DNA of 64,000 nt from Candidatus Cloacimonadales bacterium (GCA_963662585.1 OY759729.1:1859866-1923865); one strand, 5' to 3'. Shown: positions 11,934 through 62,676, counted from the stretch's first letter. Notes: a model not told the origin generated them from the sequence alone. Numbers and translations: made by a program.

Positions 11934-12347
11934 ATGGCTAAAATAGAAGCAATTGACTTCAAGAGAAGACGAGCTATTCCTACTAAGTACAAAACCCTCT
12001 TAGTTCTATTCTGCATAATAGGAATACTAATTCACTCATACTGGAATAAAAAAAGAGTTGAAAGCTTAGTTGTTGATAATGAGACTATTATGTTTGAAGA
12101 GATTAATATGCAATCAGTAATAATAAATTTTGCTATTTATAATACTACTCAAATTGAAAAATCCGAAAAAGTAAAAATCGAGATTGTTGACCAAAATAAC
12201 TATCTTGTAACTTCGACAATAAGATATCTGGAATTTCATAGGGGACAGAATTTATTCACTGAACAGATAAAATTTAAAAGAAGATTCCCTGATATAGAAA
12301 AGCGAAGTTTAAGAGCTATAATTTCTATTCATCCTCGTCGATTATGA
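11934..12347 (+). CDS. Hypothetical membrane-anchored protein (single N-terminal TM helix)
   Basis: 137-aa ORF with AGGAG upstream. Hydrophobic segment TLLVLFCIIGILIHSYW followed by a beta-rich soluble part. I recognise no family. Confidence 0.55.
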   Translation: MAKIEAIDFKRRRAIPTKYKTLLVLFCIIGILIHSYWNKKRVESLVVDNETIMFEEINMQSVIINFAIYNTTQIEKSEKVKIEIVDQNNYLVTSTIRYLEFHRGQNLFTEQIKFKRRFPDIEKRSLRAIISIHPRRL

Positions 12348-12512: not shown

Positions 12513-13694
12513 ATGTCATTTTTGATCTTAGCAACTATATTATTAATAGTTTATTGGGTTGTAGAGTACTATATGCATTTAAAAAATGTAAAAAAAGTAC
12601 CTATAAGGATTCATGTCAATGGAACACGAGGTAAATCTAGTGTAACTCGTTTAATAGCAGCTGGTTTTAGGGCTGGTGGTATAAGAACTGTAGCCAAAAC
12701 AACAGGTACTCTTCCTCGTATTATTCACCCTGATGGTAGGGAAAGTGCCATTGTTAGGTTAATGGGTGCTAATATTATTGAGCAAAAGTATATTTTCAGA
12801 AATACTGTTGCTATGAAACCAGAAGCTATTATCATCGAATGCATGGCGGTAAATCCAATTTATCAGTGGATTGTTGAAAGAAGATTAGTAAAAGCATCTA
12901 CAGGGGTGTTAACAAATGCCAGACTTGACCATACTGATTTAATGGGAGAGACTGTTGCTGATATTGCGAAAAGTTTATCTAACTTCTTCCCACCAAATAA
13001 AGTCTGTTTTACTGCCGAAAATAATGATAAAATATTTGCAGTTTTAAATAAGCGAGCAAAAAAATTTGGTACAGATCTACAACAAATTTTACCTAAAGAT
13101 GTTACTAAAGAAGAACTTCTGGGATTCTCTTATATTGAGCATGCTGATAATGTTCAATTGGCTCTTAAAGTTTGTGAAGCTCATGGGATTAAGAGGAGTG
13201 TCGCTCTCAAAGGTATGCAAAGTGCAATTCCTGACCCTGGTGCATTAACTCAACATAGAGTAGTCGAGGGAAACAAAACTTTGATGTTCTATAATGTTTT
13301 TGCAGCTAATGATCCAGCATCTACAGAGTTTTTATATCACAGAATTACCGATCATATTCACGAAGGAACAAAGTTTATTATCTTAAATTCTCGTTCTGAT
13401 AGGTTCTTCCGTACAGATCAACTTTTAGAAGTATGCAAAAATGTTGAGTTTGATTATTTATTACTTACTGGTGAATCACCTCAAAAAGCTTATGATCATG
13501 CTATTGATTTAGGTATTGAGAAGAAAAAAGTGATTAAGTTAGGTCAACCTTTGGTACATCAAATTTATGAGAAGATAGTTTCTTTAACAAATAAAGAAGC
13601 TCACATAGCAGGTATCGGTAATATTGCCGGTGAAGTTAAATATGGTGCTCAGATAGTAGCTCATTTTAAACATTTAGAACAGAAACAAAAATAA
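12513..13694 (+). CDS. pgsB: Poly-gamma-glutamate synthase PgsB/CapB (amide ligase)
   Basis: N-terminal TM helix, then a Mur-ligase-type P-loop (HVNGTRGKSSVTRLIAAG). Length (393 aa) and overall pattern match PgsB/CapB. It is followed directly by a PgsC-like gene. Confidence 0.85.
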   Translation: MSFLILATILLIVYWVVEYYMHLKNVKKVPIRIHVNGTRGKSSVTRLIAAGFRAGGIRTVAKTTGTLPRIIHPDGRESAIVRLMGANIIEQKYIFRNTVAMKPEAIIIECMAVNPIYQWIVERRLVKASTGVLTNARLDHTDLMGETVADIAKSLSNFFPPNKVCFTAENNDKIFAVLNKRAKKFGTDLQQILPKDVTKEELLGFSYIEHADNVQLALKVCEAHGIKRSVALKGMQSAIPDPGALTQHRVVEGNKTLMFYNVFAANDPASTEFLYHRITDHIHEGTKFIILNSRSDRFFRTDQLLEVCKNVEFDYLLLTGESPQKAYDHAIDLGIEKKKVIKLGQPLVHQIYEKIVSLTNKEAHIAGIGNIAGEVKYGAQIVAHFKHLEQKQK

Positions 13695-13719
13695 TTAATT
13701 ATATAATAAGGAGAAATTG

Positions 13720-14166
13720 ATGGTCGAGGCTGCCGTTGGTTTAGGTGTGATTGTAAGTTTAATCTTCACAGAATTATTAGGAGCTTCAGCCGGTGGAATA
13801 GTTGTTCCAGGCTACTTAGCTCTCTATTTAGATCGTCCAGTTCAGATTTTAACGACTTTATTAGTTGCTTTAGCAACTTGGTTGTTAATAAGATTTATTT
13901 CCTCTTTTACTATTCTCTATGGAAAAAGAAGAATGGCATTAAGTATCTTACTTGGCTTTATCTTAGGCTGGTTAGTTACAGGAATGAAACTCAATGTGTT
14001 AAGCTTTAATGTTGAATCAGTGGGATATATTATTCCTGGTTTGATAGCCAACTGGTTAGAAAGACAGGGAGTGGTAAAAACTATGTCAACAATGATTATT
14101 GCAGCTGTTTTAGTTAGAATAACTTTAATGGTATTATCAGGCGGAGAGGTGAATTTCCATGTTTAG
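13720..14166 (+). CDS. pgsC: Poly-gamma-glutamate synthesis membrane protein PgsC/CapC
   Basis: About 148-aa polytopic membrane protein with the characteristic N-terminus GLGVIVSLIFTELLGASAGGIVVPGYLALYLDRP. ATG 13720 is 6 nt after AAGGAG (the track starts at TTG 13717). Confidence 0.85.
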   Translation: MVEAAVGLGVIVSLIFTELLGASAGGIVVPGYLALYLDRPVQILTTLLVALATWLLIRFISSFTILYGKRRMALSILLGFILGWLVTGMKLNVLSFNVESVGYIIPGLIANWLERQGVVKTMSTMIIAAVLVRITLMVLSGGEVNFHV

Positions 14167-15238
14167 ACCATCATTAAGAACAAATTTATCATTAACTTTA
14201 TTAGCAGTTTTTGCCATATTACTTTTTATAATTATTGGTTTAAGTAAGGGTCCAGATTTTGAAGCACAAAAAAGTGCAGCAGAAAGAATGGAAAGATCTT
14301 TTGAGAAAATATCTCTTCAATTTAAAAAACTCGTGAAAGAAGATAAAGTAAATTGGGATAAGAAAATAGACCCAGACCAATTAGGTTTAATCGGACCAGA
14401 GACAAGTCCGATAATCACTAGTAGAGCTGTCTTAACAGAAAAACAAAGAGCTATAAATCCTAATTTAGCTGCAGTGTTTGTAAAATGGTTGAAAGAAGCT
14501 AAATTACAAGCTGGAGATTTTGTAGCTGTTGGTGTCAGTGGATCTAGTCCTTCTGTAAACATTGCCCTTTATTCAGCAATGAGAGAATTAGAATTAAAAC
14601 CAGTAATTATTACTGCTTTAAGTTCATCTCGTTATGGAGCTTCTAATGTTAATTTTACCTGGTTAGATATGGAAAAAGCTATTTATAGTGAAACTGGATT
14701 CTCAACTTATGCTGCTTCTCGTGGTGGAAATAGAGATATTGCTTCTGGTATGAATAGCGAAGGTAAAGAGATACTTGGTGATATTATTCACCAAAATGAA
14801 CTTCAGTTGATTGAAGGAAACAGAGCTCGTATTGTAATGTTTGAAAAAGCCTTACCTAAAGGAAAAGAATACAAAGCATTTATTAACATAGGTGCATCAG
14901 TTGGTAATGTAGGTTCAGTGGTTTCTGCTGGATTATTAAAAGAAGGTGTAAATAGAAGTTTACCTGAATTAGAAGCAAAGGGTGTTTTAGATTATTTCAA
15001 TGAGAAAAATATTCCGATAATCCATTTCTTCAGAGGACAAGATACTTTTGATGAATACTATTTGTCAGAAGTAAATGCAGATTCTCAAAAAATCGGTAAA
15101 GGTATTGTTTACGGATATAGTTGGACAGTAGCTTTAGTATCTTTGATATTATTAATTTTAGCAATTGCTTTAGTAATTATCTTTGATAGACATGATAGAC
15201 ATTTTATGGCTAATATTATTAGTCATCGAGAGGATTAA
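14159..15238 (+). CDS. PGA-system bitopic membrane protein, a non-canonical partner occupying the pgsA/capA position
   Basis: 359 aa with TM helices at both ends (LSLTLLAVFAILLFIIIGL; WTVALVSLILLILAIALVIIF). Overlaps the pgsC stop. It does not look like the CapA/PgsA metallophosphatase-type protein. I recall a TIGRFAMs family named poly-gamma-glutamate system protein for such partners, but this is unverified. Confidence 0.6.
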   Translation: MFRPSLRTNLSLTLLAVFAILLFIIIGLSKGPDFEAQKSAAERMERSFEKISLQFKKLVKEDKVNWDKKIDPDQLGLIGPETSPIITSRAVLTEKQRAINPNLAAVFVKWLKEAKLQAGDFVAVGVSGSSPSVNIALYSAMRELELKPVIITALSSSRYGASNVNFTWLDMEKAIYSETGFSTYAASRGGNRDIASGMNSEGKEILGDIIHQNELQLIEGNRARIVMFEKALPKGKEYKAFINIGASVGNVGSVVSAGLLKEGVNRSLPELEAKGVLDYFNEKNIPIIHFFRGQDTFDEYYLSEVNADSQKIGKGIVYGYSWTVALVSLILLILAIALVIIFDRHDRHFMANIISHRED

Positions 15239-15239
15239 A

Positions 15240-15746
15240 ATGAGAAAAATTCTGATTGTAGGATTTATATTATTAATTTCTAGCTTACTTTTTGCTGAAG
15301 GGGATGAGTTTAAATCTAGACACTTAACTCCCTTAAACAGTGAAGCAGTAATTCAAGTAATTAATAATGATAGTGAGAGTGGTAGAGATTATTTTATCTT
15401 TAGTGATACTCTCGCTTTAGAATATGAAGTTGAAGAAGGTTATGAAGTTTATGGCTTTGTCAGAACTGTAGCTTCAGATGGCTTAGAACCAGATTTAAAT
15501 ATCTATATTGATGAAACTTTATCAATGTTGCTATCAGTCTTGGTTGATAAATCAATTAAGTACACTTCAAAAGAGTATTCAGACTTATCTAGAGCCAAGA
15601 AATTATATATTTCTCCTCAAGATAAAGCATGTAAAATTCGCTTAACAACCTCAAGCAAGTTGCCTTTGATGATTAGAATGTACACAAAAAAAGCAACTTT
15701 GTTAAATAAATTAGAACTTAAAAATAATTGGGATTTGAGAATATGA
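15240..15746 (+). CDS. Secreted hypothetical protein
   Basis: I start it at ATG 15240 (MRKILIVGFILLISSLLFAEG signal peptide), 1 nt after the previous stop, rather than the track start at 15183. Confidence 0.6.
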   Translation: MRKILIVGFILLISSLLFAEGDEFKSRHLTPLNSEAVIQVINNDSESGRDYFIFSDTLALEYEVEEGYEVYGFVRTVASDGLEPDLNIYIDETLSMLLSVLVDKSIKYTSKEYSDLSRAKKLYISPQDKACKIRLTTSSKLPLMIRMYTKKATLLNKLELKNNWDLRI

Positions 15747-16738
15747 AGAAATTCTTAGTATTAGCTATTTCCTTGTTTGCAGTTATTAGTCTCTATTCAG
15801 AAATCTCTCTAACTTTTACTAATAGCTCATCTTATAGCGATAATGTTTTTCAGTTATCAGATAAAGATTTAGATGCTCATGATGCGGGAACTGCTTTCAG
15901 TTATATCGAAACCAGTGATGACTTGATAAATAACTCAAGTTTGAGTATTTATAGCAGAAATCAAATTGGTAAGGTTCGATATGACTTCTTTGTAAGAGGC
16001 GCTTATAATGCTTATCTTAAAAATACTGATAAAGCTAATGCTGCTATCTCAACAGGTTTTGGCATTGATAGTAGAAACTTTAATAGCTCTATTATGTATG
16101 GTTATTATCCTGATAACTATGTAAGAAAATATCAAGATAAAGATGGTTCAGGAGATTATGAAAAATTTGAGTATGATAAAAACTTATATAAATTCGATGC
16201 TGAATATAGATTTACTAGAAAGGCTTATCTTTTAGCTTATCTTAAGTATGAACAATACTATCATAATGAATATTTTACTGAATATGATGGTGATGCTATT
16301 ACTCCAGGTATCGGACTTAAATACTCCTTCTCTGAATTATATTTAGAAGGCTGGTACTACTATCGCAGTTATGAAACTCACGATGAGATAGTGCCTGATG
16401 ATGAAATCTCTGATCAATCATACGAAAGTAATACCTATTCAGTTCAATTAAAAATGAAGAAACTTAAAACAAGAAAATTCGAATATCGCCCTGTATTTGA
16501 TTTCAGATATGAAAAAAGATATTATGATGGATGGGATAAATATCATAATGGTAGAGAAGATGATACTATCACTATTAATCCTTCTGTTAAGTTCTATTTA
16601 ACCGATTATTTGAACATTACTCTTGACTATACTTCAAAAATAAGGAATGTGTCATCTGAGAGTCAAAGTGTAGAAGACAGCAAATCTTATCAAGAAAACC
16701 AGATGTCTATCGCCTTTGAGCTACCGATAAAATTATAA
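15743..16738 (+). CDS. Predicted outer-membrane beta-barrel protein
   Basis: ATG 15743 overlaps the previous stop (ATGA). Signal peptide MKKFLVLAISLFAVISLYS. Tyr/Asp/Asn-rich alternating pattern typical of OM barrels, similar to the barrels associated with exopolymer systems. Confidence 0.55.
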   Translation: MKKFLVLAISLFAVISLYSEISLTFTNSSSYSDNVFQLSDKDLDAHDAGTAFSYIETSDDLINNSSLSIYSRNQIGKVRYDFFVRGAYNAYLKNTDKANAAISTGFGIDSRNFNSSIMYGYYPDNYVRKYQDKDGSGDYEKFEYDKNLYKFDAEYRFTRKAYLLAYLKYEQYYHNEYFTEYDGDAITPGIGLKYSFSELYLEGWYYYRSYETHDEIVPDDEISDQSYESNTYSVQLKMKKLKTRKFEYRPVFDFRYEKRYYDGWDKYHNGREDDTITINPSVKFYLTDYLNITLDYTSKIRNVSSESQSVEDSKSYQENQMSIAFELPIKL

Positions 16739-16753
16739 CTTGAGGTGTACATT

Positions 16754-17029
16754 ATGTTTAAGAGTGAGTCAAACAGAGAGAAGATTAAAGAGTTTCTCTA
16801 TTTAATCGAGAATGAGAAAGTTGATTTAAAACGCTTCACTCGACCTGTGTTGGTTTGGACTATTAAAGATCAAAGAGTAGGCTATACTATTTGGGAAGAG
16901 GATTTACTCCATAGATTCGGATTGGAAAATGTTGATGGTTGGGATTATGATGAAGACATAAGCTTCGCTCCTGACTGGGTTTTAGATGACGACGATTTAT
17001 TATTCGATGATGATGATGACGATTTTTAA
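16754..17029 (+). CDS. Small cytoplasmic protein with a poly-Asp C-terminal tail
   Basis: ATG 16754 with GAGG 8 nt upstream. The product ends DWVLDDDDLLFDDDDDDF. It is followed by a terminator. Confidence 0.6.
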   Translation: MFKSESNREKIKEFLYLIENEKVDLKRFTRPVLVWTIKDQRVGYTIWEEDLLHRFGLENVDGWDYDEDISFAPDWVLDDDDLLFDDDDDDF

Positions 17030-17057
17030 AATTAAAAAGAAAAACTGAGATTATAAG

Positions 17058-17088
17058 CAAGAGTGTGTAAGAACACTCTTGTTTTATT
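17058..17088 (+). terminator. Rho-independent terminator after the PGA-associated cluster
   Basis: Stem CAAGAGTGT (17058-17066) / ACACTCTTG (17073-17081) with loop GTAAGA, followed by TTTTATT. Confidence 0.8.
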
Positions 17089-17109: not shown

Positions 17110-18120
17110 ATGAATATTGCAATAATTGGTGGTGGAAGCTGGGGATTAGCCCTCTCTAACCTACTTTTCGATAACGGACATCAAGTTAAGGTGTGGGAAT
17201 ATAATTCTGAATTCGTTAATTTAATCAAGAATACTGGAAAAAATGAGATTTTCTTACCAAACATTCTCATTGAAGCAGAAGTTAGCGACTCCTTAACAGA
17301 GGTAATTACTCCAGCATGTGAAATGGTAATTCTTGCAACTCCATCTTCTTTTCTCAAGCAAATTCTAAAAGAAATTTCCCCTATTTTAGATAAATTAAAC
17401 AATTTGAAATATATTATTAATGTTGCTAAAGGATTTGACCACTCTAATGGTGATATTCTCTCTGAAATGATAAGGAAAGAATTACCCCAAAAATATAGCA
17501 AACTAATCTGTGTACTCTCAGGCCCTAGTCATGCTGAAGAAGTTGCTACTAAAAAGCCAACCACTGTAACGATTGCAGGCGAAGATCTCTTATATCTCAA
17601 AGAGGCTCAAGAAGCTTTCAGTAATGACTATTTTCGCGTTTATAGCACAACAGACATCATAGGTGTAGAACTGGGGGGTGCTCTAAAAAATGTGATAGCC
17701 ATGGCTGCAGGAATTGTTGTAGGCTTAGGTTTTGGAGATAATACTCTAGGTGCTCTCCTTACCAGAGGTAATGTAGAAATTAAGAGACTCTCTGTAGCAT
17801 TAGGTGCTAAACCTGAAACACTAGACGGCTTAGCTGGTATCGGTGATTTAATAACCACAGCTATCTCTCCCCATAGTAGAAACAGATTCGTAGGAGTTGA
17901 ACTGGGTAAAGGCAGAGATTTACAGGATATTTTAGCCGGAATGAAGATGGTGGCTGAAGGTGTCTTAGCAACTAATACTGCTTATATGCTAGCTGAGAAA
18001 CTCAATATCGAAATGCCTATTGTGGAAGCTACTTACAAAATTCTACAAAGTGAAATATCTGCTCGAGATGCAATAAGACAATTGATGCTCAGAGACTTAA
18101 AAAGCGAAAGGTGGATGTAA
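17110..18120 (+). CDS. gpsA: NAD(P)H-dependent glycerol-3-phosphate dehydrogenase
   Basis: NIAIIGGGSWG dinucleotide fold, GALKNVIAMAAG, and a 336-aa length typical of GpsA. Confidence 0.92.
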   Translation: MNIAIIGGGSWGLALSNLLFDNGHQVKVWEYNSEFVNLIKNTGKNEIFLPNILIEAEVSDSLTEVITPACEMVILATPSSFLKQILKEISPILDKLNNLKYIINVAKGFDHSNGDILSEMIRKELPQKYSKLICVLSGPSHAEEVATKKPTTVTIAGEDLLYLKEAQEAFSNDYFRVYSTTDIIGVELGGALKNVIAMAAGIVVGLGFGDNTLGALLTRGNVEIKRLSVALGAKPETLDGLAGIGDLITTAISPHSRNRFVGVELGKGRDLQDILAGMKMVAEGVLATNTAYMLAEKLNIEMPIVEATYKILQSEISARDAIRQLMLRDLKSERWM

Positions 18121-18183
18121 GAGAATTGAGAATTGAGAATTGAGAATTCAGAATTGAGAATTGAGAATGGAGAATTTAGAATT
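18121..18183. repeat. Heptanucleotide tandem array, (GAGAATT)x9 with 3 variant units
   Basis: Read directly: gagaatt x4, cagaatt, gagaatt, gagaatg, gagaatt, tagaatt. It starts on the base after the gpsA TAA stop. Confidence 0.95.
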
Positions 18184-18187
18184 AAAA

Positions 18188-18278
18188 GATGAGGGGCTTC
18201 TTAACTGGGAATGTGGGCTTCCAGCCCGCATCATTGCGAGGCAATGATATATCTTCAAACCCCAAGGGATTAAATAAA
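18188..18278. repeat. ~90-bp three-hairpin module, copy 1 (second copy at 50808-50898)
   Basis: GATGAGGGGCTTCTTAACTGGGAATGTGGGCTTCCAGCCCGCATCATTGCGAGGCAATGATATATCTTCAAACCCCAAGGGATTAAATAAA. Contains GGGCT-tcc-AGCCC, CATTGC-gag-GCAATG and CCC-caa-GGG hairpins. About 94 percent identical to the second copy by eye. Confidence 0.9.
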
Positions 18279-18306
18279 AAAGCAGGTTGAAATACAGCCT
18301 GATGGC

Positions 18307-18860
18307 TTCACGGACTAAAGGTCCGTAACCCCAGTTAATCACTAAAGATGATAGCTTACAGCATGATAATCCCTCTTCTGCCGGATTGTGGACAACCTGA
18401 AGACCGGAGTTCCTCAGCCGTAGGCAAGGGACTTCGGACGAAGAAATTTGTCTGTCGGAAGTAGCTATTCCGTAAAATTGCTTAAAAATCTAGAAATCCC
18501 TGTATCTAATGTAGAAGCAGAAACGCTTCCACTTTATAGAAGAAAACACCCCCTGTATCCCCCTCGCGGAGGGGGATTTAAGATTCACGGACTAAAGGTC
18601 CGTAACCCCAGTTAATCACTAAAGATGATAGCTTACAGCATGATAATCCCTCTTCTGCCGGATTGTGGACAACCTGAAGACCGGAGTTCCTCAGCCGTAG
18701 GCAAGGGACTTCGGACGAAGAAATTTGTCTGTCGGAAGTAGCTATTCCGTAAAATTGCTTAAAAATCTAGAAATCCCTGTATCTAATGTAGAAGCAGAAA
18801 CGCTTCCACTTTATAGAAGAAAACACCCCCTGTATCCCCCTCACAGAGGGGGATTTAAAA
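18307..18860. repeat. 277-bp direct repeat x2
   Basis: TTCACGGACTAAAGGTCCGTAACCCCAGTTAATCACTAAAGATGATAGC... begins at 18307 and again at 18584. The two copies are near-identical until about 18845. Confidence 0.9.
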
Positions 18861-18928
18861 ACACCCCGTCTGCTTCGCAGCCACCCCTCTTTTATCGTGC
18901 CTTCAGCACTAAAGAGGGGAGTTTAAGA

Positions 18929-19075
18929 TTCACGGACTAAAGATCCGTAACCCCAGTTAATCACTAAAGAGGGGGATTTAAGATTCACGGACTAAAGATC
19001 AGTAACCCCAGTTAATCACTAAAGAGGGGGATTTAAGATTCACGGACTAAAGGTCCGTAACCCCAGTTATTAAAT
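18929..19075. repeat. 55-bp tandem repeat, 2.7 copies
   Basis: TTCACGGACTAAAGATCCGTAACCCCAGTTAATCACTAAAGAGGGGGATTTAAGA starts at 18929, 18984 and 19039. Contains the ACGGAC-taaag-GTCCGT hairpin. Confidence 0.9.
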
Positions 19076-19296
19076 TATTTAGGATGGACAATTAGCTTGC
19101 CCTTTTGATTTATTATGGAATGGGGGCTATTCAGTGTATTATCTTCTTCGTGAAATTCATGAAAATGTAAGCAAGGGGCTTATTTTCGTAGAGATAAATA
19201 ATAATACAAATATGTCTGTTAGCATTTTTTAGATTTATTCTTTGACAAAATATAGTCCTATAATAAACTTTTCCCAAAAGTACCAAAAGGATAATC

Positions 19297-62469: not shown

Positions 62470-62549
62470 TCCTCCAATTAATTTTGTTTTGTTTTGGAGG
62501 ATAATGCCTTGTAGAAGGTCAAAAAAATGTAAGGTGTGTATAAAAAATC

Positions 62550-62626
62550 GCATCTCACTTCCTTCGCCGGCATTACCCGGATCAGGTTCTAAGGGTATAA
62601 TCTCAGCCTTTCGGCACCCCTGAATC
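62550..62626 (-). promoter_or_regulatory. TPP (THI-box) riboswitch aptamer
   Basis: The minus strand reads CAGGGGTGCCGAAAGGCTGAGATTATACCCTTAGAACCTGATCCGGGTAATGCCGGCGAAGGAAGTGAGATG. It contains the GGGGTGC, CTGAGA, ACCCTT, AACCTGATC..GG.TAAT.CC.GCG.AGGAA consensus blocks. Confidence 0.92.
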
Positions 62627-62676
62627 TGCATGATCTTAGCCAATAAAAAATACTAACTAAAAGTGTCAAGATTAAA

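Follow-up and report, generated by a model that had tools for sequence, protein, structure and literature searches.

A secreted protein and a predicted 14-stranded outer-membrane barrel accompany poly-gamma-glutamate synthesis genes across the FCB superphylum: a candidate export route in diderm bacteria

We analyzed a stretch of 64,000 nucleotides from the genome of a Candidatus Cloacimonadales bacterium (GCA_963662585.1, OY759729.1:1859866–1923865; hereafter, the window), in which a first-pass annotation had reported a poly-gamma-glutamate (PGA) locus of six open reading frames (ORFs) on the + strand; all six were found at 12513–17029, as described there. They comprise the synthase genes pgsB and pgsC and four downstream genes, which we call D, E, F and G. 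We found that pgsB, pgsC, D, E and F are one conserved cassette across the Fibrobacteres–Chlorobi–Bacteroidetes (FCB) superphylum. The new elements are E, a secreted protein, and F, an outer-membrane β-barrel, which appear to be undescribed, whereas pgsB, pgsC and D were known already. We consider it probable that the locus is an operon for PGA synthesis and export of a diderm type, with E and F as the route from the periplasm to the outer membrane.

Nearly all understanding of PGA biosynthesis comes from Bacillus, which has a single membrane, and we know of no described answer to the question of how the polymer crosses the outer membrane of diderm cells. E and F together would be the first concrete candidate for the passage of PGA over the outer membrane of double-membraned bacteria.

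Linkage of the barrel gene to PGA synthesis genes

A profile of F was searched against 1.84 billion representative proteins and retrieved 576 relatives at E ≤ 1e-3, 348 of which were found at E ≤ 1e-10. Loci encoding F were collected from one-genome-per-species GTDB contigs by means of the family signature [YH]Nx[YFH]FTEYD (the F alignment used for this retrieval comprised 16 sequences); 142 loci were confirmed and 80 were kept. The ORFs of the fetched loci were annotated by hidden Markov model (HMM) searches, and a locus was regarded as informative when it was not cut by a contig end. D adjoined F in 72 of the 80 loci, nearly always in the order pgsB-pgsC-D-E-F, with E represented by a gene of ~0.9 kb. 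Four loci (L029, L050, L057 and L073) were cut at a contig end, and the linkage accordingly held in 72 of the 76 informative loci. The source genomes belong to Cloacimonadota, Bacteroidales/Bacteroidota, Ignavibacteriales, Melioribacteraceae, Chlorobi, Zixibacteria, Gemmatimonadota, LCP-89 and Ca. Tariuqbacter.

The reverse collection, in which 80 metagenome loci were fetched with D, gave a similar picture. F was located downstream of D in 64 loci, and the contig stopped less than 1.5 kb past D in 15 others; a single locus (L109) had room for F but did not contain it (64/65 informative loci with F). L109 is on the same contig as L005, and its genome carries F and G on another contig. The first-pass annotation had envisaged that the barrel and secreted genes might adjoin pgsBC by chance and show no co-occurrence with them in other genomes; E and F proved to be linked to pgsBC-D in both directions. 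In three loci (L062, L081 and L086), the order was rearranged to F, a gene for an LVIVD-repeat protein, pgsB, pgsC, D and E. Because the genes flanking the cassette vary by lineage, the linkage is not just an inherited neighbourhood, and the same gene order in dozens of independent genomes indicates more than chance.

Fold and conservation of the barrel protein F

F (15743–16738, +, 331 aa) was modelled with AlphaFold2 (AF2) from a 51-sequence alignment. The model (predicted local distance difference test score (pLDDT) 90, predicted template-modelling score (pTM) 0.83) contains a signal-peptide helix at residues 2–17 and 14 β-strands, in agreement with the earlier prediction of a Tyr- and Asp-rich outer-membrane barrel; the 312 mature residues include 39 Tyr and 51 Asp or Glu. 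In the Foldseek search, the model came closest to the 14-stranded channels OmpG and CymA, with template-modelling (TM) scores of at most 0.69 when normalized by the target and 0.59 when normalized by the query, at 9–11% sequence identity; PgaA and BcsC rank lower among the structural matches.

At the level of sequence, F matched no family of Pfam or NCBIfam, and its profile retrieved nothing from the PDB sequences. Among the 51 relatives, 14 matched PF13505 (OMP_b-brl) weakly (best 9.2e-07) and 9 matched PF10082 (BBP2_2) weakly (best 1.5e-05). The Pfam and NCBIfam models of polymer-secretion porins (AlgE, PgaA, BcsC and PelB) were matched neither by F nor by any of these relatives.

The family is most conserved at predicted extracellular loops and at lumen-facing strand positions, which is unusual for an outer-membrane protein. 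The conserved motifs include YSDNVFQLS, TSDD, NxDK, YGYYPxNYxRxYxDxDG, YNEYFTEYD, DxSYESN, GRxD and RNVxS. Judging from strand parity, the lumen would be lined by Y122, Y126, R128, Y130, E140, Y144, K146, K168, E170, Y172, R208, Y227, S229, E257, R259, Y261, D273, D295, R301, Y316 and E318. Such a conserved, Tyr-rich and mixed-charge interior argues for a specific substrate.

The secreted protein E and its fusions to the barrel

E (15240–15746, +, 168 aa) begins with a hydrophobic signal-like segment (MRKILIVGFILLISSLLFA), as expected from its earlier description as a secreted protein, and is predicted to be periplasmic. No Pfam or NCBIfam family was matched by E, no Pfam family by three homologues from other phyla, and no PDB sequence by an E homologue. 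Direct phmmer comparison of the window's E with the 274–288-aa proteins that occupy its place in other Cloacimonadota yielded a score of only ~13 bits. Nevertheless, an iterative jackhmmer search started from the window's E against the 6228 ORFs of the fetched loci recovered all 63 ORFs located in the gap between D and F plus 15 more, of which 14 were genes at the E position and one was an ORF of L075 in which E and F are fused; there were no off-target matches. E thus fills the gap from D to F in almost every related locus.

Members of the family are ~300 aa long and carry, behind a signal peptide, the same domain twice in tandem. The E of the window's clade is a one-domain version that retains the C-terminal copy only and aligns to family positions 161–300, and a motif just past the signal peptide is shared between distant members (KSRHLTPLN in the window's E, KSRYLKPTN in Bacteroidales). 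In six proteins (P0260, of 641 aa, P0305, P0335, P0351, P0360 and P0374), a signal peptide and one or two E domains are fused to the N-terminus of the barrel; a Gemmatimonadota chromosome encodes an E-F fusion (L075:9503–10969) alongside a separate E gene. Even-stranded outer-membrane barrels have their N-terminus in the periplasm; therefore, the fusions would position E at the periplasmic opening of F.

Synthase genes and the third component

pgsB (12513–13694, +, 393 aa) encodes an ATP-dependent PGA amide ligase with an N-terminal membrane anchor, and pgsC (13717–14166, +, 149 aa) encodes its integral-membrane partner. Both had been called clear cases in the first-pass annotation, PgsB on account of its P-loop VNGTRGKSS, and both exceeded the TIGRFAM cutoffs. 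PgsB matched the equivalog model TIGR04012 at 6.7e-114 (380.6 bits, cutoff 222.7) and Mur_ligase_M (PF08245) at 9.4e-07, with the P-loop lying within IHVNGTRGKSS; PgsC matched TIGR04011 at 5.7e-40 (136.7 bits, cutoff 96.45) and PF14102, the CapC family of Pfam, at 2.1e-36 (125.4 bits). Canonical pgsA/capA, pgsE/capE and capD/ggt genes had not been recognized at the locus, and the Pfam and NCBIfam scans likewise revealed none: the cassette contains no PgsE/CapE-like peptide, and no match to CapD/GGT or to PgdS (NlpC/P60 type) was obtained for the seven locus products, to which this search was confined.

HMM searches of the four downstream products left E, F and G unmatched and assigned D (14159–15238, +, 359 aa) to TIGR04332, 'poly-gamma-glutamate system protein' (E-value 1.4e-68, 231.4 bits, cutoff 100). 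The suggestion that D might be a divergent CapA/PgsA was rejected, given that it has no match to PGA_cap, the metallophosphatase-like domain of PgsA/CapA, in Pfam even at E ≤ 1, two transmembrane helices instead of a single N-terminal anchor, an unrelated α/β fold and membership of TIGR04332. Its earlier label of 'non-canonical third component' was therefore apt insofar as D is not CapA/PgsA, but the family was already curated, and D is non-canonical only relative to Bacillus.

The AF2 model of D (pLDDT 89, pTM 0.86) bears out the transmembrane helices proposed for both ends: an N-terminal one at residues 9–28, followed by a long helix at 34–60, and a C-terminal one at 322–353. Between them is a Rossmann-like α/β domain with a parallel sheet at about 86–300. 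By the positive-inside rule, both termini would be cytoplasmic and the domain periplasmic, with D residing in the inner membrane. A Foldseek search of the model against the PDB returned nothing at E ≤ 0.001 and no TM-score >0.25, and the profile of D matched no PDB sequence. Residues 342–352 (FDRHDRHFMAN, followed by an acidic DPDEEL in most relatives) belong to the best-conserved segments of the family. This conserved cytoplasmic tail suggests a contact on the cytoplasmic side, for example with PgsB or PgsC.

D is a member of a known family of unknown mechanism, and this part of the locus is not new. Candela and colleagues reportedly noted in 2009 that the third gene of Gram-negative clusters is conserved and unrelated to its Gram-positive counterpart. 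The NCBI product name 'poly-gamma-glutamate system protein' has been given to many Cloacimonadota homologues of D, and 'CapA' of Francisella tularensis (FTT_0807) bears the same product name. A 2025 preprint on Cloacimonadota describes the PGA operon of the phylum as CapB, CapC and 'PgsF', typical of Gram-negative PGA producers; D corresponds to this PgsF-type third component.

Operon structure and genomic setting

The junctions between the genes are as tight as the first-pass annotation had described and are consistent with one operon. The spacing between pgsB and pgsC is 22 nt when the listed TTG start of pgsC (13717) is used; an alternative in-frame ATG at 13720 is preceded by AAGGAG. pgsC and D overlap by 8 nt at 14159 (ATGTTTAG), the TAA stop of D is followed after 1 nt by the ATG of E, and E and F overlap in an ATGA at 15743. 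F and G are separated by 15 nt, and GAGGTG precedes the ATG of G. The strong terminator noted downstream of G is supported by folding: a hairpin at 17055–17084 (+), with a 12-bp stem and a 6-nt loop followed by UUUUAUUAU, closes the operon with a folding energy of –17.7 kcal/mol (z = –5.15 compared with shuffled sequences, 0/200 of which folded as well). A simple consensus terminator scan did not pick up this hairpin.

The genes rplA-rplJ-rpoB-rpoC-rpsL-rpsG are located directly upstream of the locus and gpsA downstream, and there is no G+C break at the locus. This ribosomal and RNA polymerase gene setting, together with the uniform base composition, indicates that the locus is part of the core chromosome and not a mobile island. 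All homologues that bear a source name are from Candidatus Cloacimonadota, and the closest genomes are chromosomes of Cloacimonadales metagenome-assembled genomes.

Two further features of the window were observed. The interval between gpsA and the next gene (18100–19120) is non-coding, has a G+C fraction of 0.40–0.45 compared with about 0.32, and is rich in direct repeats. The heptamer GAGAATT occurs ~10 times at 18107–18197, a 275-nt unit is present as a tandem duplicate with 99% identity (18307–18581 and 18584–18858), and a 57-nt unit is found five times; no tRNA, tmRNA or Rfam match at E ≤ 1 was obtained for this stretch. A thiamine pyrophosphate (TPP) riboswitch (RF00059, 65.9 bits) is located at 62542–62631 (–), upstream of minus-strand ORFs related to thiamine.

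Accessory genes G and A137

G (16754–17029, +) encodes an acidic 91-aa protein with the poly-Asp tail previously described (C-terminus DDDDLLFDDDDDDF). The protein combines a conserved core of ~75 residues with a poly-Asp/Glu tail; a signal peptide is lacking, as are matches in Pfam, NCBIfam and the PDB sequences. G is 53–60% identical across the Cloacimonadales loci L001–L008, where it is better conserved than F, and it always follows F, staying beside it even where F has parted from pgsBCD. All 58 homologues with a source name are from Cloacimonadota, and among the fetched loci G was found neither in L009–L034 nor in any other phylum. G, which the first-pass annotation had listed with the other downstream genes, does not count among the components of an outer-membrane export module: it is present in only part of the Cloacimonadota, and this restricted distribution and the lack of a signal peptide indicate that it is not a general export component. 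We also dropped the idea that the acidic tail serves as a C-terminal PGA primer, given that the C-termini of the homologues are unconserved and often basic or neutral.

Upstream of pgsB, and separated from it by a 165-nt spacer, A137 (11934–12347, +) encodes a single-pass membrane protein of 137 aa with no match in Pfam or NCBIfam. In the window's clade, its homologues immediately precede pgsB (L036, L041, L047, L049, L054 and L066; E 1e-41 to 1e-69), and weaker ones are directly downstream of G in other Cloacimonadales (L006–8, L040, L065 and L092); none was found in Cloacimonas or in other phyla among the fetched loci. A137 is likely a lineage-specific accessory gene. G is apparently cytoplasmic, and both G and A137 are apparently Cloacimonadales-specific additions.

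Recurrent neighbours of the cassette in other lineages

The flanking ORFs of the fetched loci were clustered and then scanned against Pfam, and two recurrent neighbours were observed. A Peptidase_C25 (gingipain/PorU-like) protein of 1250–1375 aa with a type IX secretion C-terminal domain is encoded directly upstream of pgsB, for example at L043:2174–5947, L016:728–4855 and L075:1996–5754, and in about 40 other loci from Bacteroidales, Gemmatimonadota and many Cloacimonadota. The C-terminal tails of these proteins match the Por_Secre_tail (type A) model. In 28 loci, from Bacteroidota, Ignavibacteria/Chlorobi, Gemmatimonadota and, in one case, Cloacimonadota, an LVIVD-repeat β-propeller of ~337 aa is encoded directly downstream of F (for example, L043:11035–12036, L075:11004–12041 and L026:4109–5125). 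Neither a C25 nor an LVIVD gene was found within the 64-kb window, in which F is followed by G and then by gpsA. By analogy with the transpeptidases CapD and PorU, we speculate that the C25 and LVIVD proteins may process or attach the polymer at the surface.

Proposed mechanism and alternative explanations

We propose that PgsB, at the cytoplasmic face, and PgsC would polymerize glutamate at the inner membrane, and that D, in place of the PgsA/CapA of Bacillus, would receive or guide the nascent chain on the periplasmic side. E would dock on the periplasmic face of F and form the bridge to the barrel, and F would let the linear polyanion through the outer membrane. We infer such a dedicated PGA export route, together with the locations of its products, the direction of transport and PGA as the substrate of F, from synteny, fusion and fold. 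The analysis itself establishes the identities of pgsB, pgsC and D, the modelled folds of D and F, the operon structure, the synteny in both directions and the E-F fusions. The earlier suggestion that the barrel and the periplasmic protein are candidates for the outer-membrane step gains support from the linkage, the fusions and the barrel fold, and G is not part of the general module.

Several observations weigh against this proposal. The production and export of PGA by the carriers is a prediction from gene content, and Francisella capBCA, the third gene of which shares its product name with D, has never been linked to detectable PGA. F is truly unlinked from pgs genes in four loci (L064, L079, L083 and L085). 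At least three Cloacimonadales genomes (L064, L079 (= L001) and L083) carry F-G apart from pgsBCD and without E, and one of these three has pgsBCD on a separate contig (L005); the Bacteroidota contig of L085 carries F and an LVIVD gene, with no pgs genes within 6–9 kb. The 14 strands of F are fewer than the 16–18 of known polymer-secretion porins. In addition, the charge of its lumen is mixed (R128, K146, K168, R208, R259 and R301 versus E140, E170, E257, D273, D295 and E318), so that the interior deduced from strand parity in the model does not appear clearly electropositive, as would be expected of a channel for a polyanion. G, without a signal peptide, is unexplained by an export function.

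One alternative is that E and F belong to the PGA system but do not export its product, with F either anchoring or retaining PGA at the surface or taking up glutamate or gamma-glutamyl oligomers through its channel to feed or recycle the polymer. The nearest folds, OmpG and CymA, are uptake channels that import oligosaccharides, the Tyr-rich interior of F with its mixed charges is more like a binding site than a smooth polyanion conduit, and the C25 (with its type IX tail) and LVIVD genes that flank the cassette elsewhere suggest processing or attachment at the surface. We nevertheless regard this explanation as unlikely, because coupling to a synthase and a periplasmic partner fused to the barrel are the pattern of synthase-dependent secretion, as in PgaA, BcsC and PelB, in which the porin follows a periplasmic domain, and because an exported polymer needs an outer-membrane route for which the cassette offers no other candidate. 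It seems rather more doubtful that no PGA capsule or slime is secreted at all, and that PgsBC and D make a short or envelope-bound gamma-glutamyl product (as has been suspected for Francisella capBCA) while E and F serve a linked envelope biogenesis. This would be in keeping with the presence of capBCA in Francisella, where no PGA was detected, with the cassette having no anchoring enzyme or depolymerase of the capD/ggt type, and with carriers that are all uncultured or uncharacterized; however, PgsB and PgsC score well over the equivalog cutoffs, and Fusobacterium nucleatum, which has a three-gene cluster, reportedly secretes PGA according to the 2009 work of Candela and colleagues.

The C25 neighbours raise a different possibility, in which F is a PorP/SprF-like accessory barrel of type IX secretion for the adjacent C25 cargo and is linked to pgs genes only in a secondary way. 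A C25 gene with a Por_Secre_tail is indeed directly upstream of pgsB in many loci of Bacteroidales, Gemmatimonadota and Cloacimonadota, and one of the 51 relatives of F matches PF11751 (PorP_SprF) weakly (E = 0.0032). On the other hand, pgsBCD-E-F is retained in the window and its clade in the absence of any C25 or LVIVD gene from the 64 kb, F always adjoins E and D and is three or four genes away from the C25 gene, and the 50 Foldseek matches listed for F include no type IX secretion barrel. Moreover, the neighbouring C25 tails are of type A, and an adjacent PorP/SprF-like gene is known to be needed for type B tails only. We therefore consider this explanation very improbable, and membership of F in the PorP/SprF family was rejected on the basis of that single weak match and the absence of a cargo gene from the window. 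Finally, F could be a general porin that adjoins the pgs genes by chance or through phylogenetic inertia, as its separation from them in three or four genomes might suggest. The co-occurrence counts (72/76 and 64/65), which hold over six or more phylum-level groups with reshuffled flanks and gene order and are accompanied by E-F fusions, effectively refute chance adjacency, and we attach almost no likelihood to it.

Beyond the export function that we favour for the window's operon, a wider proposal can be formulated, the chances of which we judge to be evenly balanced. E, as a separate or fused periplasmic dock, and the 14-stranded F would together constitute a dedicated PGA translocon working with PgsB, PgsC and PgsF across the FCB superphylum, and in many lineages the C25 and LVIVD proteins might process or attach the polymer, a role like that of CapD in Bacillus anthracis.

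Novelty and implications

Neither E nor F matches a curated family at a significant score, and the sources that name them call them hypothetical. A full-text literature search (TIGR04332, PgsF, and pgsB with outer membrane or beta-barrel) retrieved no description of either protein. The 2025 preprint on PGA in Cloacimonadota, which presents a three-gene operon, does not mention them, and the PGA model of CapsuleFinder lists CapABCDE only, without E or F (PMC5542703).

If the proposed function is correct, no polymer-secretion barrel smaller than F would be known, its sequence being unrelated to those of the known polysaccharide porins, and diderm PGA systems could be spotted in genomes by two additional marker genes, E and F. 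A five-gene cassette with a defined barrel and a periplasmic partner makes PGA export in diderms experimentally addressable, and it could help to engineer PGA secretion in Gram-negative hosts. These results may also be relevant to how Cloacimonadota live in anaerobic digesters, a setting for which syntrophic contact through PGA has been proposed.

Comparison with known systems

The locus resembles Bacillus PgsBCAE/CapBCADE in its equivalog-level PgsB and PgsC and in the succession of B, C and a membrane-anchored third protein with an extracytoplasmic domain. It differs in that the cassette lacks a PGA_cap domain, a PgsE/CapE-like peptide, CapD/GGT and PgdS, in that D has two transmembrane helices and an unrelated α/β fold, and in the addition of the envelope proteins E and F, which would be needed only in a diderm.

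With the exopolysaccharide secretion systems AlgE/AlgK, PgaA, BcsC and PelB/PelC, the locus shares the genetic coupling of an inner-membrane polymerase to a dedicated barrel, the periplasmic partner of which is either separate or fused N-terminally. In contrast to their porins, F has 14 strands instead of 16–18, no tetratricopeptide repeat (TPR) scaffold and no sequence relationship to them; the polymer would be a polyamide and not a polysaccharide, and the pore lining of F is apparently of mixed charge. OmpG and CymA are the best structural matches of F and have the same number of strands, but they do not share its loop motifs (YSDNVFQLS, TSDD, YNEYFTEYD and GRxD) or its fixed genomic partnership with pgs genes. 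The locus is also comparable to the Gram-negative three-gene PGA clusters (Fusobacterium nucleatum pgs, Francisella capBCA and the TIGR04332/'PgsF' family), D itself belonging to TIGR04332. Descriptions of those clusters end at three genes, whereas here and across the FCB superphylum, E and F are also part of the cassette.

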